64,000 bases of DNA. It comes from Antedon mediterranea. Lineage: Eukaryota; Animalia; Echinodermata. Below, piece after piece: positions 9,395 to 62,600 of this stretch (positions are counted from its first letter, which is position 1; each line of letters opens with the position of its first letter). Location: assembly GCF_964355755.1 (NCBI RefSeq), contig NC_092672.1, forward strand, positions 3,038,001-3,102,000, given 5' to 3'. The notes under the pieces are model-generated. The model did no database searches, was not told the DNA's origin, and saw nothing but the letters and a program-made list of their open reading frames with translations. The translations under genes and the position numbers were made by a program.

Positions 9395-9454
9395 TTATAT
9401 CGATAATATTGCAAAACTTTGATTTAGAAACAAGCAAGACGGTATATAATTATT

Positions 9455-9990: not shown

Positions 9991-10196
9991 CCCATGTTTG
10001 ACCATATTATAATATAATTATAATTATTATTGCGAAATAAAAAATCAGCATTATCATACGCACATTTTTCTTTTCTAATTACTCAATTATAATGGAGGAT
10101 TCCCACAGAATCCACCATTTACAATTACAGATTTGTCATTATTGTTGTCGGTAATTGTCCTTTTGTGGATGAGCTATAATACTTATTAGTAACTTA

Positions 10197-11201: not shown

Positions 11202-11202
<1 letters not shown>

Positions 11203-11262
<60 letters not shown>
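11203..11262. repeat. (TA)n microsatellite
   Basis: About 30 TA units. Confidence 0.95.
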
Positions 11263-11264
<2 letters not shown>

Positions 11265-13150
11265 CTATTCGTTTAAAAAACTATAACTTTTTTAGGCTAC
11301 AGAGTTCAACTGGAAAATCAAAAAACAACAAACATCTTAGCCACATTTTATATTTCCAATTCATGCTCACCTCTTCTCGGAAGATGGTTGGTTGGAAAAT
11401 ACGGAGGTTTTCCGGTTGTGTTGCTTGCTATGATTTCATCATTTACAATGGCACTATTAACTCCGTTTGCTGTTAATACAAGCGTTATTCTATTGATAAT
11501 CAATAGACTCGTCGATGGTTTCGAACAGGTAGACATAATTTGTTTTTTAAATTGTTGTTTTGCGAAAATAAAAAAGCAAAAATTAAAATAGCAGCACTTG
11601 TAATCTCTGGTAAAACTGTATTTATTATTGTAACATTTTGCAGTCCGATTTTTTTATATTTTTTATAAACATTAAGGACACACGAAAGTTGTGAGTATAG
11701 CTAAATCGTTGTATCTATTATTTTTGCTTGTTTGTTAGGTCTGTCATCTTTCATTCCCTACAGCAATATAATTTTATCAATGAAATAACTAACATAATTT
11801 AGGGCATGGTGATGACAGGATCCGTGGGTATTATAAGAAGATGGTCAATATTAGATGAACGCAGTACATTTATATCGATTACAACCTCAGGTAATAATTT
11901 AGACCTTGGTGCATTTCCATTTTTTACATGCCAGTAAAATGGTAATTTTAAAGTTCTGAGGTCGATCAGAAATATGAAATAAAGTAAACAATGCCATATA
12001 CATGGCTGTAGTCGCCTGCTCAAATTTTAGTTATAGTGTTTACCGACCGACCGACCAACCGACCGACATAGTGACCTGTAGTAAAAACAGAAAGAGGATA
12101 TGCGAATTTTTGTATATCATTTGAAAACAATCATGTCAAATTTATACCACTAAAAACAGTAAATGTTATTAAATTCCATTTGTTTAGGCCTACTATTTTT
12201 TTACTCTCTTTTTGCTCGTTCAGAGTGAAAACCGTTTCACTCAGAGTGAAAACAGTTTCACTCAAAGTGAAAACAGTTTCACTCTAAACAACGTCATTGT
12301 ACAATTCATGTCTTTTAAAAAATAATTCTTTAGATATTTTTAACTGTAATTTTTCTCAATTTAAATGTATTATTAATGAAATTATTTAACTTTTCTTTTT
12401 CATTTGTATATACTTATATTGGCTCATATTTTATAGTTTAGTTTTTATTTTCAACCTGTTATTGGTGTTTTACACTGTTGGTTTGATATAAAGAATAAAT
12501 AATGAATTTATTTTCAGTTAAATCTAAACGAGCGACCATTTTACTCGTTTACGATAAAGAGTGTAGTTAGTATAGTCAAATTAGTTTTGGACTGAAATTA
12601 CCAATCTATGAAATAACTTTTTTTTAGGATATAGTTTTGGGGCCATTTTAGCAATGTACCTGTCTTCGTGGCTTTGCACGTCAACGGAACTGGGAGGCTG
12701 GCCAACTACATTTTATTCATTTGGTATGATAAGAACAATGATACTTTTTTGTACTTTTATGAAAATGTATCTCCATCATTTGTTATATAACATTGTATTA
12801 ATATAAATAAAATATAAACTTGTATTTTACAAATTCAATGCATTATATAAAAATAACATGGAGTATCAAAAATATAAAATAATATTGATGTGTATTGTTT
12901 TTTTTTAATGTAGTGTACAATAATGAATATTATATTAAATTCAGCAATTAATATTAATGTATTTTGTTAAGGTATTACTACCATTATTTGGTGTTTGTTG
13001 TGGTGTATTATTGCATCTAGCTAGTGAACCAACTGACAATCGATGGATATCAACATTTGAAAAAGAAACGTTATTATGTCAATCAACAATGAAAGAAAGT
13101 GAAAAGGTTTTGTACATGTTTGTATTTCATGTTTTAATTATTGTATTAAG

Positions 13151-13290
13151 CTCTGTCTACACTATCAAACGTTATGAGACAAAGAATATGCTGTACCCAT
13201 ATATGGACATGATGACGTCATATCACTACCATATTTGGACATATCCCCACCATAGTTGGCTACATCACACCTTTTTTTTTGTCCAACTAG
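13151..13290. mobile_element. Complete short MITE (GCTCTGTCTACACTATCAAAC TIR)
   Basis: Right TIR GTTTGATAGTGTAGACAAAGC; TTAA on the left flank. Confidence 0.85.
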
Positions 13291-15692
13291 TTTGATAGTG
13301 TAGACAAAGCTTTATTATTTCTTTTAATATTATTATCATTCATTATTATTTTATTCGTATTGTTATTTATTTCCATCCTTACACAAATCTTAGTGATTTT
13401 AATATTAATTTTATAATTATCATTTTACCTTAGGATTATACCGTACCCTGGAAAGATATAGTGAAATCTGCACCTGTACGGGCACTAGCTATTTCAAATG
13501 TTTGCGCTGACTTTGGCTATTTACTACTATGCCTAGATTTACCTACCTATTTTTATTCCATATTAGAATTCGATATTGACACGGTAAGTGTTCTTTGAAT
13601 TGTAGACCTATTATTGTAATTTGACAGTGCTGTATCTCCACATACTATCTACTTCCGAAGTATCATATGAATATTTGGTAATACAGCATCTCATTTATAT
13701 CACATGTGGTGCCTGTATCATGTAAAGTTAAGTTAAGGGTTAGGTTACATGTGAAACACATGTGATGTTGTATTACCAAATATTCCTACGATACTAATTC
13801 ATTGTTTGAAAATCTTAAATAGAGTGGATTTCTGTCAGTGGCTCCCCACGCTGTGTTTTGTATTACAATCATCATTGGGGGATTAGCTTCAGACTATATC
13901 ATTTCTCACTCGATGCTGAGCGTAACAAACACGAGAAAATTAATTTATGCTCTTCGTAAGTATAAGTACAACTTTATATGTACTGTATTTTGAGGAAAGT
14001 GACCAAATATGGTAGTGATATGTCCAAATATGGTAGTGATATGTCCAAATATGGTAGTGATATGTCCAAATATGGTAGTGATATGTCCAAATATGGTAGT
14101 GACATGCTCAAATAATGTCACGTAATGTTTGATAATGTAGACAGAGCTTAAGGAAGTAACGCGTACGTATATTATGATTTAATAACCGTGTTTTTTTTAT
14201 GTTTTATTTTTAGCTCTCGGATTATCCGCATTTTTAGTTGTTTTAACTGGTTATATTGAAAACAAAGTAATCAACGTCATTTTGTTGACTATCGTACTTG
14301 GGTTTTATGGACCGATGGCTGGTACAGTCGGGGCTAATGCAATAGATTTGGCGCCAAATCATTCTAGTCTGATTGTTGGAATAGCGTATACATTTTCTAC
14401 AACACCTGGGTTTATTTCTCCAATGGTAGCCGGAGTAATAACAAAAAAGGAAGTAAGTAACAATTTCCAATATCATTAATATTGTGTACACAATTTACCT
14501 TCTACGGCTTTTTTGTTTTGGGCTCTAAATTTGACCGCGACCAATGACTATAGGCCTAGCCCAATTATAACATCTCATTTCTTACGCTAAATAGTTATGA
14601 CAATTAATAAAGTTTTTTTTTATAAAAGATGTATTATCCCGCAAAAACATTAAAAAGACTTTGAATAGACCATTTCGCAATAATAATGTTAATCACTTCC
14701 GTGGAAAAAGAATGTACACAACTGTGCTTTCACTGATAAAAAGAAAAAAAAACGGTTAAATTACAGTTTTTTCAAGTAAATATTTTTTTTTCGATCGAAT
14801 TAAAAATGACACTGCTTCATCAAAAATATTTTAAAACAAATATTTTTTCAGGGGGACAAGAAACTAGTGATAATTAGATATAATTTTTACATAAAATTGA
14901 AAAAGTTTTAAGAATAACGATATAATCAACTGAAAACTATTGTTTTTTTCTTTTGTAACGTTAGTTCTTGTATTGTATTCCTATTCTTTAATAAAATAAA
15001 ATATTTTATGAATCTGTTAATTCAACTGATTTTTTTTTCAGAACACAATACTGTATATCAATGGCGAATAATATTCTGTATAGTAGCTGGACTTCATATC
15101 ATTGGGATAGTTTCTTTTGTAATGTTTGGAAGTGGAGAGGTACAGCACTGGGCAAAATCAAGCGAAAATAATACAGAATCAGTACCATTCACATCATTAG
15201 AAAATAAACAAAGTAAACATGAATTAATTGATTGAATCTATGAGAGAAGAGTAATTTTAATGTCACAATCTTTTCAGATTGGCATTAAACTCACTCTTCC
15301 CTCGAATATTTATGCCACCTTTTATAAATTGAATCTGTTCTACAGTGTCAAAAATATATTAATGTGTTATCTATATGTTATAAAGTTATTATTTATTTAT
15401 TTCAACAATATTTTACGAGGGTGGTCCAACCAGCAATGTTGGTATCCTACAATTTTAGTGGGATACCAAATCCACAATAATTACCGATTTCAGAAGTTGA
15501 TAATCTTCTATAATATTATATATCTATATATAAATTTACGTAAGGGCAAAATTCGGTAAATCGCGCGTTATTTCTAGAATGTTTACTCGATGGTATATAA
15601 AGTTCGTTAGAATCTCGGTACTGATTTTAACCACCTGATGTAACCCTGTTTACTAATTAAGTTTAGTTAGATAATTAGTTATTGAGGATTAA

Positions 15693-33510: not shown

Positions 33511-33823
33511 TTCATCAGCTTTCATGGCAATAGCTGCTGTTGCTCATCACTTCTACAGAAGAAACATTGGTTTACCTAAAGAGTGGGACTTCAACACCGA
33601 AAGTGTAACATCATCGCCGCATGAGTAGTACACTGCATTCTCGTTTTCCAATCAGAAGGAACTGTAAAGAATTGTAAAAAAGAAAGCTGGGAACTGAGTT
33701 AAGGAAACTGTTCACTCTACCAGATAGCAGATGACGTCACCGTTAAAAACCGTGAGTTGCATACAAATTGAAATAATAATATTACCATTAGTATATTACT
33801 TGCATTGGTTCTTATAGTTACAG

Positions 33824-34096
33824 CGTATTCGTTGATAGATGCGATTAAGGCGCATTCGTTGATAGATGCGATTAAGGCGCATTCGTTGATAGATGCGATT
33901 AAGGCGTATTCGTTGATAGATGCGATTAAGGCGTATTCGTTGATAGATGCGATTAAGGCGTATTCGTTGATAGATGCGATTGAGGCGTATTCGTTGATAG
34001 ATGCGATTAAGACGTATTCGTTGATAGATGCGATTAAGGCGTATTCGTTGACAGATGCGATTAAGGCGTATTCGTTAATAGATGCGATCAAGGCGT
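33824..34096. repeat. 27-bp minisatellite (GCGTATTCGTTGATAGATGCGATTAAG, ~10 copies)
   Basis: Visible period of 27; lies just before a likely 5' UTR donor CAG|GTATAT at ~34123. Confidence 0.95.
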
Positions 34097-34552
34097 AGAC
34101 GGCAGGAGCACAATGTAAAACAGGTATATGTCTGATTGTGAATGTTGTTATCTAGTAGCCCAACCAGCTGGCAGGAGTTCATGTTCAGGTACCTTTAAAA
34201 TTCTACTAGCAAAATATTAACTAAATAAAATAAATAAATGAAAAAAATTAACTTAAATGATTTGATTATCCTAACAGCATATTTTTATATTGTATTCATA
34301 AATAAAGAGTTTACCCTCCCAGTTCTCTCGCTCTTTCATATCTTTTAAATAGGCTTAGGTACGGTATGACACCCGATGACATTCCGATTAGAAATACATT
34401 TTATAACGCTTGATTGTAATAGAGCCTAATTTATTGAAAATGAGAAGTCATACTTTCCAAAACAAGCAGGATTGTCCATTCCGCAACGTGACGTCATTTA
34501 TCCTAAATATAACATTTATATTTTTCAGAATTGAAGACAGAAAATTGACAAC

Positions 34553-37500
34553 ATGGCAACAGGTAACGAACAATTTAAAGATTGCTTTTGTTCAATTGAG
34601 AAACGGTAAGTTTAAAATATCTAGTTTACTAATCTTCTGTTTTCACCGTTTTGTAGATTTTAATGTTGATTTAGTGAACGTTTCAACTTGGTATGATGAC
34701 CACCACCTCTTTCGACAGCTGCAAGTTTTATACCGAGATTTAATTGCAGTAGCGGACATAGATAAAGCACAAAAAACGATAGACTTACTACACCAATTAA
34801 TTAAATCAGGACATTTGAGTTCAGAAAAGCTTACAGTACTTTATCAAACAATCAAAATAACTCAAACGTTTGGAGCCATCGAAGTTCTCCAACAATCTTT
34901 TCCCGACGTTCAAGAAATCAATATTACACATTTCGCTCCATATCGACACTGGATTGTCAATTTAGGAAATGCACTGACCAAAGAAGATATTGGCCAAATT
35001 GATGCACTGTACAATGGCAGTGCGTTAAAGAATTATGAAGATGCCTGGAGTATGATTTGGGATTTGGAGCAGAGAAAAATACTTTGTAAAGAAAGAAAAG
35101 AAGAGTTTATTAACGATCTAAGAAAGATTGGACTGGAATCAAGAGTGAAACCTCCGACTGAAGGTAAGTTGTGCGAAGCGTTATAACAGTCCGTATAAAG
35201 GTGCATGTTATGAACATAAATATCTCTCTTTTGTTAGTTTCTTACACATAATGAAACATATTCATTTTGAATTAATGCTCCCTACTGACATTTTAAGAGG
35301 TATAGAATATCATTGTACATTACATTTTGTCATTTATTAAAACAGGGCAAGTGGCAACCAGTAGTAATGAAGAACAAGGAATGCGAAAAGAAGTTAAATC
35401 AGAAACAGGTTAGTTAATAATAATGAGCCGTATAATTTTGTATGGCAAGCCTCAGCTGTCTGAAGTATTCAAAATATTATATTATTATATCATTTTCTAT
35501 TATATTATATATTGTATTGTAATGAATTATACGTTTTGCATTATATTACTTGGTTTTAGCATTATATTATATCTATTTCTAATATATTATGTGAAAAATG
35601 TAACAAATTATTGACTTTTTGTATTATATTATTTTGTTTTAGCATTATATTATGAACATTTAATATTATATTAGTAATAAAATACATTATATTATAATAT
35701 AATTGTATTATATTAAACGCATTTACTTTACTTTATAACATACAACATTATTATATTATACGGATTCGTTAGTTATATTATTATTTTGTATGATGTTTAT
35801 TATACGTCACGGCTTATTTCAGTTCTTCTAACTCTTTCTCTCCCTCCCCCTGTTCACTAGCAATCAGCGGCCGGCAGAATCTGAATTGTGTGACTGTTGA
35901 AGAATAACTACGTACTAGGCCTAGCCTAGGCCTACTAGGGGATCTAGACAAGTGACCAAGGATCACCGGACAGCTACAAATAATACTACAATACAATAAT
36001 ACTACTACAATAACTACTACTGCTACTACCTAGGCCTAGCTAGTGAGTAGTAGGTAGCTACTACTAGGCTCTAGGGCGTATGTATGATGTTAACTACTAG
36101 GGCCTAGGCTAGGCCTAGAGGCCTACTAGGCTAGGCCTAGACTTAAGTTGTAGTAGGCTAGGGCCGGGCCTGCTGCCTTAGGCTAGGCTACTGCTACTAC
36201 TACTACTACTAGGCAGCCCATGATGGGTACGAGTAAGCCAAAATTTTGGATATATGTAAACCAAAATTTGGGTACGAGCGTGTTGGCATGGCATGGGTAC
36301 GGGTTGACCTGTATCCTTCTAATCTAGCTAATCGTACTATGCCTAGGCCTCAAGTAAGTCTACGCTACCCAGTCCGGCTACAATATGGTCTATTTTGTTT
36401 TATAGCTTTATTGATAGCTGGGTTCAAATCTGTGTTGGGACGGCTTTTTCTCATTCTAAAACAGATTTCCTTATAATAAAATAATATATGAATTTATTTG
36501 TAATATTGTAATGTATACATAATATAAGTAATTGCCATTGCCTTTATTACTATTAATTATGTATTATACAGTTACCCCTTAATTATACTATAGTATAATT
36601 TCCTTGTTATATTTTACAATATTTTCTTCCTAATTCTAAAATTTTGTCTTTCACAGCACAAATTTATCATACTGAATCATCACACACCAAGTCTCATAAA
36701 TCTCTACTGTATTTGTCCAAGCTACTCCAGCTACATGGTATTGCCTTGAGGCTAAACTACACGGTATACTGGCACTACCATCATTCCTGGCTCGTCAACC
36801 TGTACCACATAAGCACAGTTTCAGTTTCAGTTTATTTACCATTTCAATTTCTGAACATAAGAGATGAACAACTTATATGGATGGATAACCGTAAGAGCGA
36901 AGCTCGTTTACCGGTCACCCGTTAGTGCAGTGACATTACAGAAAACATAAAGACAGGACAAAGGTGCAATACTTAACAAGACATGTGAACACTTGTGTTT
37001 GCAACCCCTTGGATAAAATAATATATTTATATAAAGGAGAAAGTTAGATATTATAATATTTCTTTTTGATCATACAATGATATTTTTTAAATTACTTCTT
37101 AAGAAGTCATACTACTGATTCAAAATAGTGACTTACACCCTGTGGTCAAGGCTTTATTTGCTCTTATGCTTATTTCCTCCAACATACAGAGTACATAGGA
37201 CTTTTTTTATTCATAACTGTTGAATTGTTTCCCAATACATAGTACCTATTGGTATTATATCTAAAAATACAAAGGCGACTAACACAGATAGTTCCATATA
37301 TACAGTACTCTTTTATAGATAGATGTATCTCTCCAAACTACTCCCAACTACCTAATCTAATAATAGTACTATTAGCATACTACTATACACTTTGTAGACA
37401 AGAAATAAGTTGTATACACCTACAGGACTTATGGTAGTACAGTCGATCGCACTCTCACTGGCCCGGTCAACATAATCTATACCTAGATTAATATTACAGT

Positions 37501-40500
37501 AATTAAAGTACATTATTACAGAGTTTTGTTTTTTTTGCAGAAATCAAAGTTATGTGTATAGAAAGCAGTACTCGTATTAAAAACTAAGCAGGTTGCAGGT
37601 CTTGAATGCAAACTGGCAGGATATTTTGAATATTTTTTGTTGTTTAAATGATGGAATCCTAACTTCAGTTTCCACGAACTGGAGACGAAGACATATTATG
37701 ACCCTTTTATTTAAATTTATTTGAATAGACCTCCATGTAAAGTCATTAAAGGCTACATGATTGTTTTATATTTTAATATGTGATAGTAGGAAATCATTGT
37801 GTATAATGAGGACTATGAATCTGATATTTACTTGCATTCTTATCTTTTTAAAATATTATTTATAATGCCGGTAATGAGTTTAAAATTTAATTATATTGAC
37901 TATTTTTGATAATCATCATGTCCTTATAAATTCATTTATACTTTTTTTGTGTAATATAGTTCATATATTATGTATTAAATAAATTGGTAAGGCCCTATAC
38001 TGTTATTATTTAAGGAAAGTTTATATACACTATTATTTTATGCCTACCAATATTAGTATTAATTGTTTATGTAAATATTTTGTCTAATTGCCTTGATTTT
38101 TGTATAGGCCAATGGCATCAATGTTTTTCTCAAAGCAAATTAGCCTAATAATGCCACATTTAGACACATGATTCATTGATTTCTGATATTCTGTACTTGT
38201 GTGTATGCATTACTAAAATAGTAGTTAATATATTTCATTTATAATGTATGTATAAACATATATTCATATTTTTTTAAACATTTTTAAATTTAAAAATTAT
38301 TACAATACCTATCTACCTTTCTGATATTGTTACTATTATATAATATTCTTTGAGGCAGCAATAAAAAAAAAATTAGAACAATTAATTTGACTTATACTGT
38401 ACTATGTTAGTTCAGGAGATGAAGTGTGTGTGGGCAGAAACTAGTGTGTTGGAGGTTGGTGGTGTGAGGTGTATAGTAGTCACTTTAAGACCTAAATTAG
38501 ATGTTTTCTGAAGAAAAGAAGTAAGCGCATACGCTTTCAAACAACTCCAAGAAGATTCACACAAAAATAATTACTTTCCAATAAAGTAGTATAACCAGGG
38601 AAGAGTTAACTCTTTCCTGGTATAACAGTGTATATTACAGTACATTGAATAAACTCGAGCGGAATAATAACGCACATAAAAAAACATTCATTTTCTTTTC
38701 GAAAAGTGCCCTCTCTAGTTTTCTATTAATTTATTAATAATTGTTATTAATTAATGAGTAATATGAACATACATATTAACATTTAATGCTGGAAACTATA
38801 TCTACTCCTAACAAAGTTTCATATCTCCAAATTTCATTAACGTATTCAAAGCACTTCAATAAATTACATTTAACAATTACAAATTCAAGTTTTGGATATA
38901 ATTTTGCTTAAAAACATATACAAAAAACATCGATAAAAAATACTTTTCGTATTCAAAAACATTTGATACTTGGTATAAATGTTCAATATAGGTTGCTCCA
39001 TCCATATTGCAAACAAAAAATAACTATCAAGCCATATCACTGATTTTTTAAATTTACGTTTTTACAAAATGTACACTTATGAAAGACCATACAATTCCCA
39101 CTCATTTTTTTCAAGCTAATAACTATTTTGAAAAAACAACCAACAAAAAACGTTCATGAATGCAATTTTCTTCTGTGAATAGAGCAACCTATAGTGAACA
39201 TTTATACCAAGTATCAAATGTTTTTGAATACGAAAAGTATTTTTTATCGATGGTTTTTGTATATGTTTTTAAGCCAAAGTCTATCCAAAACCCGAATTTT
39301 TATGTTAAATGTGATATTTAATATTGAAGTGCTTTGAATACGTTAATGAAATTTAGAGATATGAAACTTTGTTAGGAGTAGAACCAGCTTCCAGCATTGA
39401 ATGTTAAAAATATGTTCATATTACTCATTAATTAATAATAATAATAATATTAATAATAATAAATTAATAGAAAACTAGAGAGGGCACTTTTCGAAAAGAA
39501 AATGAATGTTTTTTTATGTGCGTTATTATTCCGCTCGAGTTTATTCAATGTACTGTAATATACACTGTTATACTACTTTATTGGAAAGTAATTATTTTTG
39601 TGTGAATCTTCTTGGAGTTGTTTGAAAGCGTATGCGCTTACTTCTTTTCTTCAGAAAACATCTAATTTAGGTCTTAAAGTGACTACTATACACCTCACAC
39701 AACCAACCTCCAACACACTAGTTTCTGCCCACACACACTTCATCTCCTGAACTAACATAGTACAGTATAAGTCAAATTAATTGTTCTAATTTTTTTTTTT
39801 ATTGCTGCCTCAAAGAATATTATATAATAGTAACAATATCAGAAAGGTAGATAGGTATTGTAATAATTTTTAAATTTAAAAATGTTAAATAAAAATATGA
39901 ATATATGTTTATACATACATTATAAATGAAATATATTAACTACTATTTTAGTAATGCATACACACAAGTACAGAATATCAGAAATCAATGAATCATGTGT
40001 CTAAATGTGGCATTATTAGGCTAATTTGCTTTGAGAAAAACATTGATGCCATTGGCCTATACAAAAATCAAGGCAATTAGACAAAATATTTACATAAACA
40101 ATTAATACTAATATTGGTAGGCATAAAATAATAGTGTATATAAACTTTCCTTAAATAATAACAGTATAGGGCCTTACCAATTTATTTAATACATAATATA
40201 TGAACTATATTACACATAAAAAGTATAAATGAATTTATAAGGACATGATGATTATCAAAAATAGTCAATATCATTAAATTTTAAACTCATTACCGGCATT
40301 ATAAATAATATTTTAAAAAGATAAGAATGCAAGTAAATATCAGATTCATAGTCCTCATTATACACAATGATTTCCTACTATCACATATTAAAATATAAAA
40401 CAATCATGTAGCCTTTAATGACTTTACATGGAGGTCTATTCAAATAAATTTAAATAAAAGGGTCATAATATGTCTTTGTCTCCAGTTCGTGGAAATTGAA

Positions 40501-43500
40501 GTTAGGATTCTGGACATCATTTCAACAACAAAAAATATTCAAAATATCCTGCCAGTTCGCATTCAAGACCTGCAACCTGCTTAGTTTTTAATACGAGTAC
40601 TGCTTTCTATACACATAACTTTGATTTCTGCAAAAAAAACAAAACTCTGTAATAATGTACTTTAATTACTGTAATAATCTAGGTATAGATTATGTTGACC
40701 GGGCCAGTGAGAGTGCGATCGACTGTACTACCATAAGTCCTGTAGGTGTATACAACTTATTTCTTGTCTACAAAGTGTATAGTAGTATGCTAATAGTACT
40801 ATTATTAGATTAGGTAGTTGGGAGTAGTTTGGAGAGATACATCTATCTATAAAAGAGTACTGTATATATGGAACTATCTGTGTTAGCCGCCTTTGTATTT
40901 TTAGATATAATACCAATAGGTACTATGTATTGGGAAACAATTCAACAGTTATGAATAAAAAAAGTCCTATGTACTCTGTATGTTGGAGGAAATAAGCATA
41001 AGAGCAAATAAAGCCTTGACCACAGGGTGTAAGTCACTATTTTGAATCAGTAGTATGACTTCTTAAGAAGTAATTTAAAAATTATCATTGTATGATCAAA
41101 AAGAAATATTATAATATCTAACTTTCTCCTTTATATAAATATATTATTTTATCCAAGGGGTTGTAAACACAAGTGTTCACATGTCTTGTTAAGTATTGCA
41201 CCTTTGTCCTGTCTTTATGTTTTCTGTAATGTCACTGCACTAACGGGTGACCGGTAAACGAGCTTCGCTCTTACGGTTATCCATCCATAAGTTGTTCATC
41301 TCTTATGTTCAGAAATTGAAATGGTAAATAAACTGAAACTGAAACTGTGCTTATGTGGTACAAGTTGACGAGCCAGGAATGATGGTAGTGCCAGTATACC
41401 GTGTAGTTTAGCCTCAAGGCAATACCATGTACCGTAGCTGGAGTAGCTTGGACAAATACAGTAGAGATTTATGAGACTTGGTGTGTGATGATTCAGTATG
41501 ATAAATTTGTGCTGTGAAAGACAAAATTGTAGAATTAGGAAGAAAATATTGTAAAATATAACAAGGAAATTATACTATAGTATAATTAAGGGGTAACCGT
41601 ATAATACATAATTAATAGTAATAATGGCAATTACTTATATTATGTATAAATTACAATATTACAAATAAATTCATATATTATTTTATTATAAGGAAATCTG
41701 TTTTAGAATGAGAAAAAGCCGTCCCAACACAGATTTGAACCCAGCTATCAATAAAGCTATAAAACAAAATAGACCATATTGTAGCCGGACTGGGTAGCGT
41801 AGACTTACTTGAGGCCTAGGCATAGTACGATTAGCTAGAAGGATACAGGTCAACCCGTAGTCCGTACCCATGCCATGCCAACACGCTCGTACCCAAATTT
41901 TGGTTTACATATATCCAAAATGTTGGCTTACTCCTACCCATCATGGGCTGCCTAGTAGTAGTAGTAGTAGTAGTAGTAGTAGCCTAGCCTAAGGCAGCAG
42001 GCCCGGCCCTAGCCTACTACAACTTAAGTCTAGGCCTAGCCTAGTAGGCCTCTAGGCCTAGCCTAGGCCCTAGTAGTTAACATCATACATACGCCCTAGA
42101 GCCTAGTAGTAGCTACCTACTACTCACTAGCTAGGCCTAGGTAGTAGCAGTAGTAGTTATTGTAGTAGTATTATTGTACTGTAGTATTAGTTGTAGCTGT
42201 CCGGTGATCCTTGGTCACTTGTCTAGATCCCCTAGTAGGCCTAGGCTAGGCCTAGTACGTAGTTATTCTTCAACAGTCACACAATTCAGATTCTGCCGGC
42301 CGCTGATTGCTAGTGAACAGGGGGAGGGAGAGAAAGAGTTAGAAGAACTGAAATAAGCCGTGACGTATAATAAACATCATACAAAATAATAATATAACTA
42401 ACGAATCCGTATAATATAATAATGTTGTATGTTATAAAGTAAAGTAAATGCGTTTAATATAATACAATTATATTATAATATAATGTATTTTATTAATAAT
42501 ATAATACTAAATGTTCATAATATAATGCTAAAACCAAATAATATAATACAAAAAGTCAATAATTTGTTACATTTTTCACATAATATATTAGAAATAGATA
42601 TAATATAATGCTAAAACCAAGTAATATAATGCAAAACGTATAATTCATTACAATACAATATATAATATAATAAAAAATTGATATAATAATATAATATTTT
42701 GAATACTTCAGACAGCTGAGGCTTGCCATAATTTTGCTCTCAATTGTTAGTTTTTTTAATATTAATAATTGTCTTTTAATTTTTGTTCTTATTATTTTAT
42801 TATTAAAACAGGGCAAGTGGCGACCAGTAATGAAGGGCAAGGAATGTCAAAAGAGGTTAAATCAGAAACAGGTTAGTTGCTTTCAGAATAATAATATTTT
42901 ATACAAAATCCTTTTTGATGTTTAATTCAAATTATAAACCACATGTAGAACCATATAATAATTAGGAAGCTTCATTGTTTTAAAAACAAAATGTTGTTAA
43001 CATCATAAATAAGTAAGATTCGAATTACACACATTATTATTCTTTGAGATCCAATAAGCTTAATTCTAATCCGCATTGCAAAGTTTGTTTACTGAATACA
43101 AATAAAAAAAGGTCAACTAAAAAGTTAGATTTTCAGAGTAAATATTTCTGTTTTATTAGTATTTTATATACACTAAAACTCCAAACGGTACGGCTCTCTG
43201 AAAATTGTTATTGTTCTGTGTGCTGCCCTCTGTTGAGCATATTTCGACAGCGCCTGATGGATTAAAAATTGTATTTTCCGCCCTCTATTCAGATTCAGAT
43301 TAGATAAGATCTTTGATTCAGATAATAATAATAACCATGTTAACACCATTAGTCATGTATTCTTTAACTCTTTTCACGAAATAACAAAGAATAAAATACT
43401 TATATCAATATTATTGCAAACTTGTGTTTCAAACAGCAGCTCCACGGAAATTAATTTAGGATAAATGGCAAGGTTTTAAATTAAATTAATTCGTACACGT

Positions 43501-46500
43501 GCAATATTTCATTTTAAATAAAGCAAATGAAATATTTTCAACTTTAACTTTCATATTAAAAAATGTGAAGACTATAATTTTTTGGTGCAATTTCTATTAT
43601 CTCTGTTTATTTGAAAACATTTTCATTTTTTATAGTACAATTAAATTTTTATTTCACCTACAAAAAAAAAGGAATTAATACACATGCGTGCTACAGACGG
43701 TAATGTCGTAAACCGTTAATGTATAACCTCCAGCTAACTAATGTAGAATGGTCATTATGTAGTAACAAATTGCCTCACAGCTAATGTAGTACTTTACTAT
43801 CGCTAACTAATGTAGAATGGTCATTATAGTAACGAATTGCCTCACAGCTAATGTAGTAGGCCTACTTTACTATCGCTAGCAAATGTAGTATTAAATATTA
43901 TATATTTTACAAAACCATTAATGCATTAAAAACATGAGATGAGTAGTAGTAATTAGTACGGTCTTTATTTAAATGTATATTTAATTTCACTTTCTATGGA
44001 CCAGAGACTCCGAAATAAAAGATTGAATAAATAATAAAATCACATCGTCTTAAGTTTAATTTTACTCATTTAATTATAATTAATTTTAAAATAAAATGTC
44101 TTCATAAAATAATTGATGAGATTTTGTAAACAAAATTGAAAAATAGTAATTCACCATAATATTTCATGTACTGTAGTTACAACCATCTTTGTTCAAAACA
44201 TTGTTTAAAGTTTCTGATTAATGATAATTTTCTGTTTGCCGCCTTCTATAATCCCTTTATTTTCATAGATACAGCATTAATTAAGACCTATAAATGCACA
44301 AAAAAATGTGATTAAAACGTAGAGAATTGTGAATTCAGTTTCAATCATAAAAATCTTAAGCAACAAATAGCCTTTTAACCTAATAACATACATATGGTAT
44401 TTAAAAATATCAACATGTCACACCCTGGGTCGTGTATCCTACTCTTAACGATAAAAGAATAAAATACGTAAAATCAATTTTTTGTATTGCAAACGTGTGT
44501 TTACAACAGCAGCTCCACGATAATTACCAGTTAATTTAGGATAAATAGCAAGGTTTAAATTAAATTAATTCGAACACAAGTGCAATATTTCAATTTTGAA
44601 TAAAGCAAAAAAATGTATTTACAATTTTAACTTTTCCTATTGAAATTAAATGTCAAAACTATCACTTTTAACTCAATTTCTATTATATCTGTTATTTGTT
44701 ATTGCTTTCGTATTAAGAACAAAAGTTGTACTGAGATGCCTGAAAAATCTTTAATTTGTTTTACTACTGTACAACTCATTTTTTATTTCAACTACAAAAA
44801 AAAAAAAAATTAATATATGCGTGTTACAACGCTAATGTCGTAAACAGTGAAATATCAGCTTTAGTAAAAACCTCCAGCTAGCTACTAATATTGAAACATC
44901 AACAGCTTATGTAGTAAATAAAAAAAAAAAAAACAACATCTACTGTAGTTATTGGAGTAACAAAATTTCCTCATAGCTAATGTAGTTGCTATGGAGACAG
45001 CTGGAGGTTTTAGCATAAGCTGTGTATTGCTCTACATTAAACGGTTGTTACGATTTGCTGGCGACCACCAGTTGTTTAATCATGGAGGTACAGTATAAAA
45101 TAATAATAATATTTTATACCTCCATGATTTAACCGAGTTTTATTTCTGATTGATAATAAATTGTGTTTGTCGCCCTCTATATTATTTACTTGGTTTACTA
45201 CTTCGGCGCGGCTCCAGCACTTCTTATTGTATTACAATACTAGAAATTACAAGGCCCTTATTAAATAAAATAAATTTATTTTACTAAAATATTGTTTTTG
45301 CCATTTTTCTTCTCATCTAGACAAGATTGAAGAATATCTGCTTCAAAGACAAAAGAAATTGTGCAGCCAGGCCAGTAGATTTACACCAGCAACAATGCGT
45401 GATAGATACAATGTTGACATTTCACAGATGTTCACGGATTTGGAACTACGCAAAGAAGCTAAAAATAATAAAGGCTGCAAACCAACAACATTAACAGAAG
45501 TGATAGATGTTATCAGTTCCAAACCTGGATGTAGAGCTCTTATTGATGGGGAGGGTGGGATAGGTAAAACTACCATATTAAGGCATTTAGCATACAATTG
45601 GGCTACGGCTACTCAATCAATTAAATCATTTAAAGGTAAAATTGTATTTCTTTTAAGTTTACGGGATTTAGATAAAGATGAAGACATCATTGATTTAGTT
45701 GTAAAGCAAATTGATATGAAAGAGTTTAGCAGGCACACAAAACTTCCACGAAATTCAGAGTTAATTCAAGATTTTCTAATAACCAATGCCGATAAATTGG
45801 TATTTTTCTTAGACGGATTAGACGAATTGCGATTTAATAATCAAAGCGTAATTCGTCTTTTCAAAAAGACCAACCTAGAAGAAAGTACCGTGATACTTAC
45901 TTCACGATCAGAAAACATAGACAAATTCGTAAAAGAGAGTAACGTACATGTAAGAGTTAATGGATTTAATAACAAGAGCATAGGAAAGTATATTGACAAA
46001 CATTTTGAGTATTTTGAAAAACCAGAATTGGAAAAATCCCTTAAAAAGGAATTAGATATTGACACGCATCTTGAAACAGTTAGGCCTACGTGGATGATGC
46101 AGCGTATTAGAATGCGTCGCTTAAGCGAGGGAGAGCGAAAACATCCTGAAGCGTATGCAATGTGCAAAAACCCGATGCTACTTCTTTCACTCTGTATATT
46201 GTGGGAAGATCATCAAAGTCTCCCCGAAGATAAAACTGACCTCTTCAAAGAACTCTTTCGTAGTATTTTGAATCAGTTCAATAAACGAGAAAACATAACA
46301 AAGATTTCTGAATTTGAAAAAACACCAGTGAAGTATGTAAATGCTATGATTTTATTAGGGAAATGTATGTATGATAGCTTAAAAGTAAACCAACTTTCAA
46401 TAAACAAAACGGATTTGACTAAACATTCGAACAAAGCTATGGTTGATACGGCCTTAAAACTCGGGTTCGTTTATGAAGACGCACAAATTTCAAAATCAAA

Positions 46501-47329
46501 TTTTGATAACATTTTTATGCCTCCTCACAAATTGATAGTAGAGTCATTGGTGGGATTTTACTTGTGCAAATTATGTGAAAGTGAAGGTATGGAGAATGAG
46601 TGCTCAGATGTACGAACATTACTTACACCATTGGATGATGATGAGTGGGAGGTGATACGAGAGAGTAAGCATTTATACAGAGCGAGAGAGTTTGCAATTG
46701 GTTTCCTTGGTGATAAAGCTGGCGGTTTCCTCAAGCACTGGGTTACAAATAGTTTGTCAACATATCGCTATCTGCCGAGAAATTTTAACTTTGTTAAAAA
46801 ACAACATAAAGATACTGTGGTAAATGAATTAATTAATCACATGACAAGCAAAGATTTAGAAATAAATAATCATTTGGATGATATATCTACCTCCATAAGA
46901 ATGTTTATTGATTACATTAGTCCACGTGTACAATGTGACGGGCATTTCATACGTCTAATTATGCAATTGTATTGTATGCAATATGATTGGCATAGTGCCA
47001 GTGTCTTTTGTAGTAAGATGGCATTGGAGCGAAAGGGAAGAGTTATTGCACACATTTTAGGCATTCAAGATAAATGTGACGATGTTGTGATTCTGAATCT
47101 ATCACGTGATGTATTTCATGACTTTGTATCAGAATGTTCTCACAAACAAGTTCAATTAGCATTACGTGATCTCCATATCTCTCGTAGTAACCTTCACAAC
47201 CTTGATGTTAATTCATTGTCTTCATTACTCATTATGTGTCCTAAGCTGGAATACCTTGACATGAGGGATTGCATTCTATCAGCTGACGACATTCGTCACG
47301 TGTCTGAAAAGTGTTCATTTTTTCATTAG
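34553..47329 (+). CDS. NLR1: tandem death-effector-like domains, two linker micro-exons, NACHT and ~2 LRRs, 882 aa
   Basis: Exons 34553-34562, 34657-35163, 35346-35408, 42812-42871, 45321-47329, all joined in phase 1, 2649 nt in frame. Walker A GEGGIGKTT, Walker B FFLDGLDEL, VILTSR, CKNPMLL, F..PHKLIVE; LRR-like LRDLHISRSNL and LEYLDMRDCIL. Confidence 0.85.
35441..42730. mobile_element. 7.29-kb foldback element: ~3.55-kb inverted arms, ~183-bp spacer, no ORF
   Basis: TATGGCAAGCCTCAGCTGTC... / ...GACAGCTGAGGCTTGCCATA; arms 35441-38998 and 39182-42730; ATTTTG direct repeats at 35435-35440 and 42731-42736; empty site ATAATTTTGCTCTCAAT in paralogous introns at ~60043 and ~61403. Confidence 0.95.
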
Positions 47330-48571: not shown

Positions 48572-50325
<1,754 letters not shown>

Positions 50326-51059
50326 TGAGGTCACCTACGTTAATTAGGCCTAGTAGTAGACTCTAAACTAGATACTTCCCTCCTCCGACTCTCCAGAGTT
50401 GTTGTTTGTGGGCTAGGGGAGAAAAGAGTGGTACATAACATACACCGAATGCCGGTACACCCTGCTGGCTGGCTGTGTGTGATATTATTGTCACGTTAGT
50501 TAGGTGCCAGGCAGGCACCAGTAGGCCTAGCGTAATACCAAAACAGAAAAAAACTATAAACACCCAGCTTACCTAAGTTTTGTGTCTCTTAGAAGAACAG
50601 GTTAGGCCTACACCTTTTATATTATTCATAAAGGCCGCGCTGTGTGAATTGATACCAAAACCATACCCACCTCCTGCTCTCTACTCCAAACCAAAGAGCG
50701 CCTTCAACGGACAATGAGACCGTACCACCAGTTTTTGAAAAATAATTTATTTTATCAATTTAATTTTTCATCACTATGTCGATGTCAAAATATAACCAAA
50801 TTCGGTTTTTTTTTCTACCCAGAATTTAAATACAATACAACAATAATTGTTTTGTAATAATTGTCGGCGCAGTGACGATGCGATAATGCTGAGTCATCAT
50901 GAGGACGGTGCAAAGATGCCAGTTTTAGCATAAAAACAATATAGCAAAAATATGTAAAAGGTATAAAATGATGAATGCCGACTTGACAAAGGAAGAAAAT
51001 GGAAGAAGAATATGAGAATTGTTTGAAGGTTTTCATGACAAAATCAAAGAATCAGCGCA

Positions 51060-53270: not shown

Positions 53271-53934
53271 ATCGATTCGGCCCAGGACTACTCGGCCCAC
53301 TTTTAGTGGATATAAAATTATGTAGAAATAATAAGTAGTTTAAAATATGTCTCTCAAATAACAATATGTTCATAGTTTAAAAATGAAAATAGCCAAAATT
53401 ATCTTGATTTTTATATGCAAGTTGCAAAATAAATCAATACAGCCGAATCGTCCCACATTCAGACAAAAGATTAGTAGTATATTGGTAGTATATCATCATA
53501 TAATAATCGGAAAATGTCTTCAGTATTTTTGAATGTCCAACTTTCTCATTTTAATTGAAAGTTGTTTATTATTTTTTTAATAAACATTGAATTATTGTCT
53601 TCTATTTATATATATTGTTAATGTCGATCAACCTGGTCATCGTTATTTTCTACTATAAATTTATAGTACAGTAGCCTAGGCTATCTCTCATTAATTGAGA
53701 GATTTTTATTTTTTTAATTATTACGGTACTGTAATTCCTGAGTTTAACCAGGGAGTTGTCAAATATATATTGATATTATACATTTAAATCGAGGATCATG
53801 TGTGTTTTCGTTATATTCACTACATGCACGAGTTTTTATGGTAAAATCGAACAGAATTTAAAAGGACCAAATTTTAATTTCAAATGTTCAAATTTCGATA
53901 TTTTCATCATAAAATTATTATGCAGTACGGTACT

Positions 53935-54530
53935 ATATTGATGATAACCCAAGCGTGACGCACAGTATGTCAGTACTATATTGATGATAACCCAAGAGTG
54001 ACGTACAGTAATATGTTATACTCATGTTGATGATAACCCAAGAGTGACGCACAGTAATATGTTATACTCATGTTGATGATAACCCAAGAGTGACGCACAG
54101 TAATATGTTATACTCATGTTGATGATGACCCAAGAGTGACGCACCGTAATATGTTATACTCATGTTGATGATGACCCAAGAGTGACGCACAGTAATATGT
54201 TATACTCATGTTGATGATGACCCACGAGTGACGCACAGTAATGTGTTATACTCATGTTGATGATGACCCAAGAGTGACGCACAGTAATATGTTATACTCA
54301 TGTTGATGATGACCCAAGAGTGACGCACAGTAATATGTTATACTCATGTTGATGATGACCCAAGAGTGACGCACAGTAATATGTTATACTCATGTTGATG
54401 ATAACTCAAGAGTGACGCACAGTAATATGTTACACCATGGAGAAATCAGTCCTAACTGATTTCTCCATGGTTATACTCATGTTGATGACCCAAGAGTGAC
54501 GCACAGTAATATGTTATGCGCATGTTGATG
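53935..54530. repeat. 46-bp minisatellite (~12 copies); one unit carries a 36-bp hairpin insertion
   Basis: Unit CATGTTGATGATGACCCAAGAGTGACGCACAGTAATATGTTATACT. Confidence 0.95.
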
Positions 54531-56296: not shown

Positions 56297-56530
56297 AGTG
56301 ATTGCCGAACCTGATCATAATCCTCGGGTGATTGCCGAACCTGATCATAATCCTCGGGTGATTGCCGAACCTGATCATAATCCTCGGCTGATTGTCGAAC
56401 CTGATCATTCGGCTGATTGCTGAACCTGATCATAATCCTCGGGTGATTACCGAACCTGATCATAATCCTCGGGTGATTGCCGAACCTGATCATAATCCTC
56501 GGCTGATTACCGAACCTGATCATAATCATA
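56297..56530. repeat. 30-bp minisatellite (GTGATTGCCGAACCTGATCATAATCCTCGG, ~8 copies)
   Basis: Visible period of 30. Confidence 0.95.
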
Positions 56531-57947: not shown

Positions 57948-58326
57948 TTATATAACACCTACACACATTCATGTCATTTGATTGGACGATTGTATCACAT
58001 GGCGTGAAATAGTATACAAATAATGAATGTTTATGAGTGCAATGGTACAAATAATGGCACGAGGTGAATGATGAAAGGTTATATCAACGAGGCAAAGCCG
58101 AGTTGATATAACCTTTCATCATTCACCAAGTGCCATTATTTGTACCATTACACGAATACAAAACATTCATTATTTGTTTTATATAACATCTAGACGTTTT
58201 TTTTTCGTACACAAAAATGTTTCAAAAAGTACTATTTAACGATCGTTGAATAGTGCGTACTATTGCACGCCATGTGACCCACATTCGTCCAATCAAATGA
58301 CAGGAATTTATATAGGTGTTATATAA
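57948..58326. mobile_element. Palindromic MITE-like element, ~380 bp
   Basis: TTATATAACACCTA / TAGGTGTTATATAA ends; long inner stem centred on ATATCAACGAGGCAAAGCCGAGTTGATAT. Confidence 0.85.
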
Positions 58327-59630: not shown

Positions 59631-62600
59631 CTGAAAAGATGAGGGCGTATCAATTTGATCACTGCATGGTGCGCGTGCGTACAATTGAGGGATTGGCGCT
59701 GTCTACCGTACCACGCCGAGAGTGTTAAAGAGTCACTATCCAACAATACCATGACAGCCCCAGCATTCTAATGGTTGGACATCTGCATATAAAGCAGAAG
59801 GTTCCCGGTTCAAATCTCGGTTGGGGGGATTTTTTCTCTTTCTTACAGATTTCAACTTTATCGTTTCAAATAAACAAAACAACATCCATTTAAGTCGCAA
59901 TAAAGGTGCAATTGTTAGAACATATATATTTCTGTTATGTTAGTTATATTTCTTATTACACGATGAAACATAATTTATGTTGAATTAATGTTTCCAATAG
60001 TTGAATTATTTGAGGTATAGAACATTCATTGTAATGTACCGCATAATTTTGCTCTCAATCGGTAGTTTTTTTTTAGGTAGAATATTGTCAAATTTTTTCT
60101 TATTATTTTCTTATTAAAACAGGGCAAGTGGCAACCAATAGTAATGAAGACCAAGGAATGCGAAAAGAGGGTAAATCAGAAACAGGTTTGTTGCTTTCAG
60201 AATAATAACATTTAAACAAAATCTTTTTTAATGTTTAATTATAATCTGACCCCATGTTGAACGATATAGCATATTTCCGACACCTCCTGATGGATATTAA
60301 ATTGTGTTTGCCGCCCTCTATAAATTCGTCTATACTACAATCAATGAAAAAACGAACAACAATTATAATAACTTCATTAACCAAATACTGTGTGATTAAA
60401 TTTTCTGTAGCAAAAAAACATTCTTAATAGACTAAAAACATGAGATTATCTAGCCCTGCAAAAACATAAATAAATAGTTAACATGATTACATTCATATTC
60501 ATTTAGTAAAAACACTGCTTAATGGATCAATTGATAATCGGCAATAATAATATTAATAATGTTTTCCAAAATAAAATATATTCAGAAAAGATAGACTTTA
60601 GTTATTTTTCTTTAACAGATGAGAAAGTGTCGACGACTTTTAAAGAAGAACAAGGAAAGCGAAGAGAATATAATGACTCCGCCTCACGACGAAACAGAAA
60701 ATCTGTCTTTGTTACTTTTTTCAAAAGATTTGGCTTGAAAAAATCAGATTCAAGTGAGTTACTTCAGTTATTATGCATTAACATAATAATATGGTATTTG
60801 AATGCAATAATTGTACACACACGGTTTCCTATTTAGAAAGTATATTAAGTAAAAATGAGTTGTTTGATTGGTTTAGATAGATTTAAAAATTTATTTTTGA
60901 AATAAAGTTTATTAAATAAAATCACATCTCAATTTTGTTCATTTAATCATAATTAATTTGAAAATAACATGTCTAAACAATTCATGAGATTTTGTAATCA
61001 AATTCAATAGTAGTAATTGACTATTTTCATCCTGATGTACTGTAGAATTACAATCCGAATATTAACTCAAACACAGTTTAAAGTTTAGTTCTGATTAATT
61101 ATATATTTTGTTTGCCGCCCTCTATAATCCCTTTTATTTTCATGGACACACGTCACACTCACAGATACTGTAGTATTAATTATAAAATGCACAGTTGTAT
61201 ATGCCATTTGACATACAATTGTGGATGATGATAAATGAATGTGATTATGACGTAGATTGTGAGTTTAGTTTCACTCATAAACGTCCATGCAACAAATAGC
61301 CTACCTAATAATAACATTTATTAAAACAGGGCAAGTGGCAACCAGTAGTAATGAAAAACAAGGAATGCCAAAAGATGTTAAATCAGAAACAGGTTAGTTA
61401 CTATAATTTTGCTCTCAATCGGTAGTTTTTTAGGTAGTATTATTATTTCATTTTTGTTCTTATTATTATTTTATTATTAAAACAGAGCAAGTGACAACCA
61501 GTTATATTGGGCCTAATAAAGAACAAGGAATGCGAGAAGAGGTTAAACCAGAAACAGGTGAGTTACTAATAATGTACCGTAAAATTTTGCTCTCAATTTT
61601 ATGGTAGTACAGGTATAATTATTTCATTTTTTTTTATTATGTGATTATTAAAACAGGGCAAGTGGCGACCAGTAGTAGGCATAATGAACAAGGAATTCGA
61701 AAAGAGGTTAAATCAGAAACAGGTTAGAATTGCTTTCAGAATAATATTTAAACAAAACCATTTTGAACAACGATAAACAATTATAGGAAGCTGGTTAACA
61801 TCATAATAAGTAACTTGACTCATATTATACACATTATACCTTTACACAGAAATACCTAGCTTTAAATTTATGATTATTTATGATTTATTGTGGGAGGACT
61901 CAGTTGCCCTCAAAAGAATATGTCTACAAAAACCACGAAACTACTTAAACAATGTGAACTTCACAACAAGTTACAATTACGTTCTTACAAACTACAGTAT
62001 AGACAAACAGTTACAAGATAATCAGAAATCTGCCGAGGTTCCCTCATCATAAATATTGCACACTCTGAATGCTCTCGGCGGTACATGACACACTGTTATT
62101 GGAGCGGAATTAAGAATTTTACAGCTGTAACTGGCAAGAAATGATTTGGGAGGATTTTATTACTTTTAATACACTAAACTTACAGAGTAGCCTACGGCCC
62201 TGAAAGTTAATTTTTGTTTACTGCCCACTGTTGAGAATATTGTCACGCCTTCTCTGATGGATTAAAAATTGTGTTTGTCGCCCTCTATAATTCCGCCTAT
62301 ACAACACACAATGAAGAAACGAAAGTTGCACAATAACTTAATTAACCACAAAGTGTGTGATTATAGTTTCTGATACTGGCGAAAAAAAACAGCAATAATA
62401 TATACAAGAGGAAATTTAAAAGTGAATACTTGGCCTCATACTACATTTCTATAACAATCAAACATTCTTAATGCATTAAAAACATTAGATGAGTAGTAGT
62501 AATTAGTGTTTATTTTTGATTAATATATGTAACTTTACTTTCTATGGTCCATAGATTCCGAAATAAAAGATTGAATAAATAATCAAATCACATCGTCTTA

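Follow-up and report, generated by a model that had tools for sequence, protein, structure and literature searches.

Gene-less, nearly fully palindromic transposons with a short spacer are known from several animals, among them Tc4 and Tc6 of Caenorhabditis elegans, FB of Drosophila and TU of sea urchin; Tc4 has been called a 'fold-back structure'. An outer arm domain of short direct repeats is one criterion of foldback-type elements. Tc4/Tc6, FB and TU belong to other superfamilies than the element described here and have other target-site duplication (TSD) lengths, and their arms either stay below about 1 kb or consist of tandem repeats, whereas the arms considered here are 3.5 kb long and mostly non-repetitive.

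Among the transposon families reported as edited are Tc4 and Tc6 (PMC4317174). Galileo copies with two terminal inverted repeats (TIRs), described in Drosophila, foldback-like and assigned to the P superfamily, are non-autonomous, consist almost only of long TIRs and carry repeats inside the TIR; they have a 7-bp TSD, a longest TIR of 1260 bp and a TIR length that is highly variable among copies, and their TIRs are proposed to lengthen when break repair copies one end onto the other (PMC3573991). Sex-chromosome palindromes have arms that are near-identical within a genome and an arm–spacer boundary conserved between species; they mostly carry genes, are homogenized by gene conversion between their arms, and in the case of P6 have arms of about 100 kb (PMC3723533). 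For the IS3EU superfamily, excerpts of the primary papers give TA..TA ends with a TSD of usually 6 bp (PMC10045372), IS3EU/GingerRoot termini of the form TAYGG..CCRTA (PMC12730594), and TIRs of over 30 bp (PMC12730594) or of 100–150 bp (PMC6839031).

Here we describe a 7290-bp gene-less palindrome within a 64,000-nt stretch of feather star DNA (the window, to which all positions refer). It is one copy of a highly repeated feather-star family, likely made up of non-autonomous, IS3EU/GingerRoot-type cut-and-paste elements that are probably moved by a transposase encoded elsewhere and whose arms are probably kept alike by copying from each other. The element shares with IS3EU/GingerRoot the TA..TA termini (here exactly TAYGG..CCRTA), the 6-bp TSD and an invertebrate animal host, but it has no transposase or second gene, and its 3.55-kb arms make up 97% of its length in place of short TIRs. 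Like Galileo it is non-autonomous, almost entirely composed of long TIRs and equipped with internal TIR repeats; it differs in superfamily, in TSD length (7 bp in Galileo), in TIR length (at most 1260 bp in Galileo, 3550 bp here) and in having an apex common across organisms where Galileo TIRs are variable. It resembles sex-chromosome palindromes in its near-identical arms and conserved boundary, but those are fixed, far longer in the arms and mostly gene-carrying, whereas the present element is dispersed, likely mobile and gene-less. Among the papers that literature searches brought up, no title or opening of an abstract described this crinoid family or any IS3EU element whose arms reach kilobase length; such a family may nevertheless be recorded in Repbase or Dfam, in subscription journals or in supplements to IS3EU papers.

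Architecture of the palindrome

Self-BLAST returns a single inverted match, pairing 35441-39004 with 42730-39176 over 3605 columns at 96.2% identity with gap letters counted. The element occupies 35441-42730, and 7107 of its 7290 bp (97%) lie in the arms. The left arm (35441-38998, plus strand, 3558 bp) begins TATGG and the right arm (39182-42730, minus strand, 3549 bp) ends CCATA, its tip being set at 42730 by other copies. Exact pairing of the arms stops at 38998/39182, which leaves a spacer of 183 bp (38999-39181) that is repeated together with the arms. In a global alignment the arms differ by 46 substitutions in 3514 columns (98.7% identity) and by 16 indel events. The outer arm has 24 substitutions in 3248 columns (0.74%), against 22 in 266 (8.3%) for the roughly 265 bp beside the spacer (38736-38998 in the left arm, plus strand; Fisher p = 1.4e-13), a count that takes in about 6 columns beyond the true spacer edge. 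This suggests that the inner zone lags behind the outer arm in homogenization. The first-pass annotation had put the arms at about 3.55 kb and the spacer at about 183 bp, in agreement with these measurements; its estimate of about 99% arm identity holds for the outer 3.3 kb but not for the inner part.

The outermost segment of the arm (35441-35810, plus strand) is AT-rich and carries short repeats, including three minus-strand copies of CGTATAAT (35526-35533, 35755-35762 and 35799-35806) that are mirrored in the right arm at 42364, 42408 and 42637. It is likely to serve as a transposase-binding zone. Further in, a GC-richer segment (35900-36350, plus strand) contains numerous CCTAG/CTAGG words and CTA triplets. 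The left arm alone has a 31-bp insert (38589-38619), containing a 26-bp hairpin between TATAA repeats, which contigs of runs X1, X6 and X9 skip (joint 38588-38620).

No coding remnant was found in the element. The longest stop-free stretch of the left arm is 108 codons, Pfam gave no family at E < 0.04 in 33 frames (from 61 ORFs and one right-arm ORF; best E = 0.043, noise) and none in six frames read through stops, and Rfam gave no match, in keeping with the first-pass annotation, which saw no ORF. The copy examined contains no integrase-like DDE transposase of the IS3EU/GingerRoot kind, as expected for a non-autonomous member of a family. The terminal 25-mer matched no loci when metagenomes were scanned, and no autonomous partner was seen in the data covered. 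Two X5 contigs, of 906 and 1825 nt, have nothing but the tip in common with the element and are candidates for DNA of such a partner. Structurally the element belongs to the foldback class: long inverted arms form most of it, it lacks coding capacity, its copies are dispersed, and its arms carry short direct repeats at their outer end, AT-rich and confined to the outer ~370 bp. MITEs are short, under about 1 kb, and at 7290 bp the element falls outside that class, although in its way of working it is comparable to an oversized MITE.

Insertion site and host gene

The left junction reads ...GTATA ATTTTG|TATGGC... and the right junction ...GCCATA|ATTTTG CTCTC, so that the element is bracketed by two copies of ATTTTG (35435-35440 and 42731-42736). 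The target is uninterrupted, with ATTTTG present once each, in three paralogous introns of a downstream gene (60046-60051, 61406-61411 and 61584-61589). The locus is a 6-bp-duplicating insertion into a 107-bp intron, with the TSD length read from this one insertion, since contigs show single flanks; the contigs examined contained no empty allele of the exact locus. The terminal 18-mer has two matches in the window, at the two tips (0.02 expected). Among the rows listed, loose contig ends fall at 42730 in X1 (four contigs), X5 (two) and X10 (one), and none falls at 42727; two further X1 joints lie at 42730, and shared contigs end there in X5, X9 and X10. The first-pass annotation had proposed a real insertion, with an empty site in paralogous introns, and IS3EU-type TAT..ATA ends with a 6-bp TSD. 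The three intact single-ATTTTG introns bear out the former, and the TATGG..CCATA ends with the tip at 42730 in three runs the latter. Both tips match TAYGG..CCRTA at five of five letters, the TSD of this one insertion is 6 bp, and TIRs are present, although 3.55 kb long; membership of IS3EU, which rests on these ends, is likely.

The host is a DED-NACHT gene of probable NLR type, annotated in Antedon mediterranea, and its annotated protein, P0001, spans the element. All host exons are on the plus strand. The 5′ coding exons (34553-35163, comprising 34553-34562 and 34657-35163, with the death-effector domain) agree with P0001 at 168 of 168 residues. A 63-nt exon (35346-35408), also included in P0001, ends 32 bp before the element, and a NACHT exon (45321-47326) has an open frame. 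Genes of the NLR family combine a death-fold domain with NACHT and, as a rule, LRRs. Here NACHT scores above the Pfam cut-off, DED below it (E = 1.4e-5), and no LRR family was detected in the four host-gene pieces scanned with Pfam; in close paralogues LRR families are present, and these genes bear NLR names. We infer an immune role for the gene from its domains alone. An in-frame, 60-nt exon-like copy with intact splice sites (42812-42871, plus strand) lies 81 bp past the element and is absent from P0001.

X5 is likely an RNA run, with contigs that break at exon ends and join exon to exon, and five of its contigs depart from the sequence at 35408; X1, which covers introns, looks like a DNA run. 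Apparent splice sites in the arm near 36657, 37540 and 38108, picked out by eye, are not used in any spliced joint among the joints listed (15 of 54). Two joints into the right flank carry paralogue letters, and an ambiguous 35440/35360 joint occurs in X1.

The family in related organisms

We used public contigs from 5 of 18 runs (X1, X5, X6, X9 and X10; X2-X4, X7, X8 and the small-share runs X11-X18 were left out). The median summed depth of the arms reaches 165,060 in X1, where zero-difference flank contigs have 138 and 202; the corresponding arm values are 125,636 for X6 and 57 for X9. Summed contig depth is not equivalent to copy number. Spacer-to-arm depth ratios are 0.72 (X1), 0.53 (X6) and 0.37 (X9). 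In organisms A and B, both arms and spacer are present in high repetition, and contigs join the tip to differing flanks, showing that the copies are dispersed. An opposite-strand joint at 38998/39169, corresponding to arm–spacer–arm, occurs in two of four runs, from organisms B and C, and is absent from the two organism-A runs among the joints listed (15 of 54); no contig spans the complete element. At the contig level, the CCATA tip is family-wide, repetition is high and the arm–spacer–arm junction is shared with organisms B and C, and the palindrome is a standing structure of a highly repeated family and not a one-off.

Among the rows listed (40 of 321), 24 are variant rows inside the element. 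Both arms share the window letter in 14 of these. At 37790 and 38478 the window letter is nearly absent in all four runs (other letter at least 0.99), and at 35727 and 37816 it equals the letter of organism A whereas B and C differ at a level of at least 0.99; contigs drop rare variants, and such near-private bases may represent a small subfamily. That organism-specific and near-private bases are common to both arms points to arm-to-arm copying, by which the arms are probably kept alike. This copying is not constant, as the arms differ in the other 10 of the 24 rows listed.

CGTATAAT occurs eight times in the window, seven times within the element and once in the host intron (35429-35436, plus strand), where it overlaps the insertion site. 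In two X1 contigs the tip has inserted, in another copy, at a subterminal site of the element itself, of the 42641 type. The self-motif test is positive with 7- and 8-mers but not with 9-mers, and the host cut is 2 bp off the self-insertion cut position relative to CGTATAAT. Neither the one X10 flank (GCTGGC...) nor the consensus of the four X1 contigs starts with TAAT. The three sites give a hint of an insertion preference for this subterminal motif.

Alternative explanations

Mutator/MULE elements of the FB and Rehavkus type have GG..CC ends and a 9-bp duplication, and a 9-bp direct repeat, ATAATTTTG, does flank the insertion site, owing to an ATA that by chance stands before the target. Other copies, however, retain the terminal ATA and diverge only past 42730 (three runs, two organisms), and we reject this assignment, already disfavoured in the first-pass annotation, as having a negligible chance of being correct. 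The same annotation thought an assembly artefact unlikely. No listed contig bridges the junctions of the locus, as a fold-back chimera would predict, but the 46 substitutions and 16 indels that separate the arms, the clean TSD, the empty paralogues and the recurrence of the apex in other organisms leave such a chimera next to no credibility. It is unlikely that the same structure was moved by another superfamily with a 6-bp TSD (for example, Polinton-related or unclassified) and that the IS3EU label is wrong: the element has no transposase, and its arms far exceed the IS3EU TIR lengths in the excerpts consulted (over 30 bp; 100–150 bp), but both tips match TAYGG..CCRTA over five letters next to a 6-bp TSD. 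Polinton ends read AG..CT, which counts against a Polinton-related transposase.

The palindrome might also not be the mobile unit, and represent two one-ended elements inserted head to head or a fold-back local to this site. This would accord with the lack of a contig covering the whole element and of the apex joint among the listed joints (15 of 54) of the organism-A runs, but it is very improbable given that a single TSD pair encloses both arms, that the spacer is repeated as expected for about one per two arms, and that organisms B and C have the identical apex junction. Equally slim are the chances that the insertion has been kept as an RNA hairpin regulating the NLR gene, whether by silencing, by editing or by causing the 60-nt exon that follows to be skipped. 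The annotated protein does span the element without that intact exon, the apex is predicted to fold at -520 kcal/mol (z = -51), and inverted DNA transposons in introns are main editing sites in C. elegans (PMC4317174). However, the annotated forms of the paralogue, P0002 and P0003, likewise differ in whether such exons are included, with no insertion present there, the insertion is one of many copies with no sign of fixation, and X5 has no A-to-G/T-to-C excess (30 of 157 places versus 39 of 185 in X1), a weak contig-level test. Most probably the insertion is tolerated as a passenger of the intron, and on present evidence its location in an NLR gene is incidental.

Discussion

Our preferred reading, a non-autonomous IS3EU-type family moved in trans, suggests the following course. 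The element would have begun as a deletion derivative, with a copy of one end replacing the other in the course of break repair, the route put forward for the lengthening of Galileo TIRs, and the shared variants suggest that arm-to-arm copying continued, fading toward the spacer. Its mobilization would occur in trans, through an IS3EU transposase that binds to the AT-rich subterminal repeats, with a possible landing preference for CGTATAAT hinted at by three sites, and the host pre-mRNA is predicted to fold into a ~3.5-kb hairpin.

We regard as tentative, and rather doubtful, a stronger version in which the palindrome is mobile as a unit and belongs to an IS3EU-type lineage that predates the divergence of three or more related species (A–C), with arms evolving in concert by conversion, as in sex-chromosome palindromes, and a transposase homing on CGTATAAT. 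Were it true, self-nesting and intronic insertion would both be explained, and hundreds of such copies would give the genome an abundant internal supply of long dsRNA.

The IS3EU superfamily has received little study, and detailed structure and function analyses are described as largely missing (PMC11934779). The family bears on whether its transposase selects targets resembling its own end motifs. With high copy number and 3.5-kb non-repetitive arms, it also offers many natural replicates for the survival and homogenization of long inverted repeats, and lets conversion be related to how far a site lies from the spacer. Each transcribed copy would yield kilobases of near-perfect dsRNA, making its handling by ADAR and small RNAs testable in an echinoderm.

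Structure of the palindromic insertion

The 7,290-bp palindrome at 35441–42730 is a real insertion. Self-comparison of the window gives a single long inverted match (35441–39004 against 42730–39176), and exact arm pairing stops at 38998/39182, which sets the spacer at the 183 bp first estimated. The termini read TATGG...CCATA with ATTTTG on each side, and in three paralogous introns of the next gene the target is present once and uninterrupted, confirming the empty site reported in the first-pass annotation. Between the arms there are 46 substitutions in 3,514 aligned columns and 16 indel events. The earlier figure of about 99% arm identity holds for the outer 3.3 kb (24/3,248 substitutions, 0.74%) but not for the inner part (22/266, 8.3%, a count that includes about six columns beyond the spacer edge; Fisher p = 1.4 × 10^-13). 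In line with the reported lack of an ORF, no coding remnant was found: no stretch of the left arm and spacer stays free of stops for more than 108 codons, Pfam gave no credible match among 33 frames (one right-arm ORF and 32 of the 61 ORFs found in the left arm and spacer) or in six frames read through stops, and Rfam gave no match.

A 31-bp insert (38589–38619), present in the left arm only, consists of a nearly perfect 26-bp hairpin flanked by TATAA repeats. Contigs of three sequencing runs bypass it and contigs of run X5 have it in other flanks, so that either a very small mobile hairpin or the footprint of an excision would be an explanation. Near 36895 is a further mini-hairpin, GAGC-GAA-GCTC.

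Host gene and RNA

The flanking exons code for a DED–NACHT protein and best match P0001, an NCBI-named A. mediterranea protein, in three exon pieces (168/168, 20/20 and 604/608 residues equal, with the four differences at its very end). The match to P0001 identifies the host as a feather star, and the annotated transcript runs across the element: its 63-nt exon (35346–35408) is followed by the NACHT exon at 45321, and an intact 60-nt exon copy at 42812–42871 is left out. With that copy counted as an exon, the element has enlarged the intron from 107 bp to 7,403 bp. The skipping is no evidence of an effect of the element, because P0002 and P0003, annotated forms of the downstream paralogous NLR-like gene, also vary in whether they contain such exons, although that gene has no insertion. 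These in-frame exons of about 60–70 nt are tandemly duplicated in the DED–NACHT linker of both neighbouring NLR-like genes (35346–35408, 42812–42871, 60123–60185, 61330–61392, 61486–61557 and 61657–61722).

A 956-nt stretch at the apex is predicted to form one hairpin of -519.9 kcal/mol (mean of 20 shuffles -146.8, z = -51), a stability expected from any inverted repeat of this kind. Run X5 (organism A) behaves like RNA: five contigs depart at 35408, the end of an exon, and another links two exons. Its contigs also cover the element, as expected of intronic copies. Contigs are a weak test of editing, and A>G plus T>C changes give no such signal (30 of 157 variant places in X5 versus 39 of 185 in X1, also organism A). 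In Caenorhabditis elegans, 85–90% of editing sites overlap inverted repeats and 63–73% DNA transposons (PMC4317174), and only by this analogy would editing of the element's RNA be plausible. Summed X5 depth at 36670–37005 and 37342–37845 is 3–13 times that of the rest of the arm, a measure that cannot rank parts; the signal may come from a repeat embedded in the arm or from exons of a transcript of the element.

Elsewhere in the window, a multi-exon membrane-transporter-like gene, by eye presumably SLC17/sialin-like, is tandemly duplicated (100–5700 and 7500–15200, pieces about 90–96% identical). Minus-strand exons at 48575–51000, between the two NLR-like genes, resemble what we take by eye to be the C terminus of a HELLS-like SNF2-type helicase. 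Self-comparison also finds smaller, probably MITE-like palindromes or inverted repeats (57948–58326, 11202–11263 and 2133–2323), and minisatellites lie at 8502–9400 (20-bp), 33823–34097 (27-bp), 53931–54530 (about 90-bp) and 56299–56527.

Element ends and family assignment

The apparent 9-bp repeat ATAATTTTG at the element edges is compatible with two readings, TAT..ATA ends with the 6-bp target-site duplication (TSD) ATTTTG, preferred in the first-pass annotation, or a 9-bp duplication. We compared public contigs from five of the 18 runs listed (X1, X5, X6, X9 and X10). Loose contig ends start at 42730 in X1 (four contigs), X5 (two) and X10 (one, organism D), in two further X1 contigs 42730 is followed by other letters, and contigs shared with the element end there in X5, X9 and X10. 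Among the rows listed, which stop short of 13 further loose-end rows and 144 pieces, none falls at 42727. Contigs of other copies thus break at 42730, so the terminal ATA belongs to the element, which rules out the 9-bp duplication and upholds the 6-bp reading.

IS3EU families have TA..TA ends and usually a 6-bp TSD (PMC10045372), fungal IS3EU have TAYGG..CCRTA ends and terminal inverted repeats (TIRs) of >30 bp (PMC12730594), and GingerRoot has a 6-bp TSD and 100–150-bp TIRs (PMC6839031). The ends and TSD agree with these descriptions, in line with the IS3EU fit proposed at first, whereas the arm length is unlike the described TIRs. Neither an IS3EU element whose arms reach kilobase length nor an account of this feather-star palindrome family turned up in the titles and abstract openings that our literature search listed, with Repbase, Dfam and paper supplements outside its range. 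Tc4, FB, Tc6 and TU are foldback-type elements of similar mode, and the element works like the non-autonomous two-TIR copies of Galileo; the palindrome would be a foldback-type, two-TIR non-autonomous element with IS3EU/GingerRoot ends and TSD. Two X5 contigs (906 and 1,825 nt) share only the last ~50 bp (42673–42730) before diverging, and are candidate sister families with the same tip and candidates for the autonomous partner.

A repeated family in related organisms

Across the left flank, left arm and spacer, the region compared for depth, joints and variants, the arm reaches a median summed contig depth of 165,060 in X1 and 125,636 in X6 (organism B), 323 in X5 and 57 in X9 (organism C), and zero-difference flank contigs in X1 have depths of 138 and 202; summed depth is not copy number and gives an order of magnitude only. 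Arms are likely to number in the hundreds in organisms A and B, with C having far fewer. The spacer, too, is repeated, with a spacer-to-arm depth of 0.72 in X1, 0.53 in X6, 0.37 in X9 and 0.12 in X5. X6 and X9 contigs cross the spacer and switch strand at 38998/39169, the window's apex, so the palindromic layout is common to related organisms; among the 15 of 54 joints listed this one is absent for X1 and X5, and no contig spans the whole element. In organism D the tip is present and departs from the window at one of 81 letters. The layout is likely older than the split of these organisms, with transfer between species a possible alternative. Cover from organism C is almost nil at 36468–36840, where one contig departs at 36468; its arm version likely has another segment here, and arms may be mosaics.

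A possible insertion-site preference

The motif CGTATAAT occurs eight times in the window against 3.3 expected (at least eight in 4 of 100 shuffles), with three copies near each tip, one more in the right arm and a single copy outside the element, which overlaps the insertion site. Each of the three empty paralogue sites deviates from it. In two X1 contigs the tip is followed by TAATTC..., which lies within CGTATAAT of the element's subterminal sequence or a sister-family version; the host cut lies 2 bp from this self-insertion cut, and neither the X10 flank nor a consensus of four X1 contigs starts with TAAT. As a control, 20-nt windows outside the element were scored by the rarest of the k-mers with three or more copies in the terminal 400 bp. 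With 7-mers, 75 of 56,664 windows did as well as the insertion site, and with 8-mers 4 of 56,664 did (about 13 without the slice edge effect); with 9-mers the insertion site had no motif. Transposase targeting of the element's own subterminal motif, an idea that arose only after the sites had been inspected, is a lead.

Probable copying between the arms

Of the 321 variant rows, 40 were listed, 24 of them within the element; the two arms agree on the window letter in 14 of these 24, and the right arm has the other letter in 10. At 35727 and 37816 the letter of both arms is that of organism A (other letter 0.00 in X1 and X5, 0.99–1.00 in X6 and X9). At 37790 and 38478 the shared letter is almost missing in each of the four runs (other letter 0.99–1.00), although rare variants are lost from contigs and such letters may mark a small subfamily. 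A letter that arose once and stands in both arms would, given an older apex, have been copied between them, directly or through other copies. The arms of the window copy also differ less from each other (0.74%) than the left arm does from contigs of organism C (10 other letters in 554 and 15 in 492). The poorer match beside the spacer suggests that copying seldom extends to the apex, unless the inner segment is recombinant. The pattern is similar to that of Y-chromosome palindromes, with conserved arm–spacer boundaries and homogenized arms (PMC3723533), and to the TIR extension by repair proposed for Galileo, whose longest TIR is 1,260 bp (PMC3573991). We consider it probable that the element is a copy of a repeated, likely non-autonomous IS3EU/GingerRoot-type family, likely mobilized in trans, with arms likely kept alike by arm-to-arm copying.
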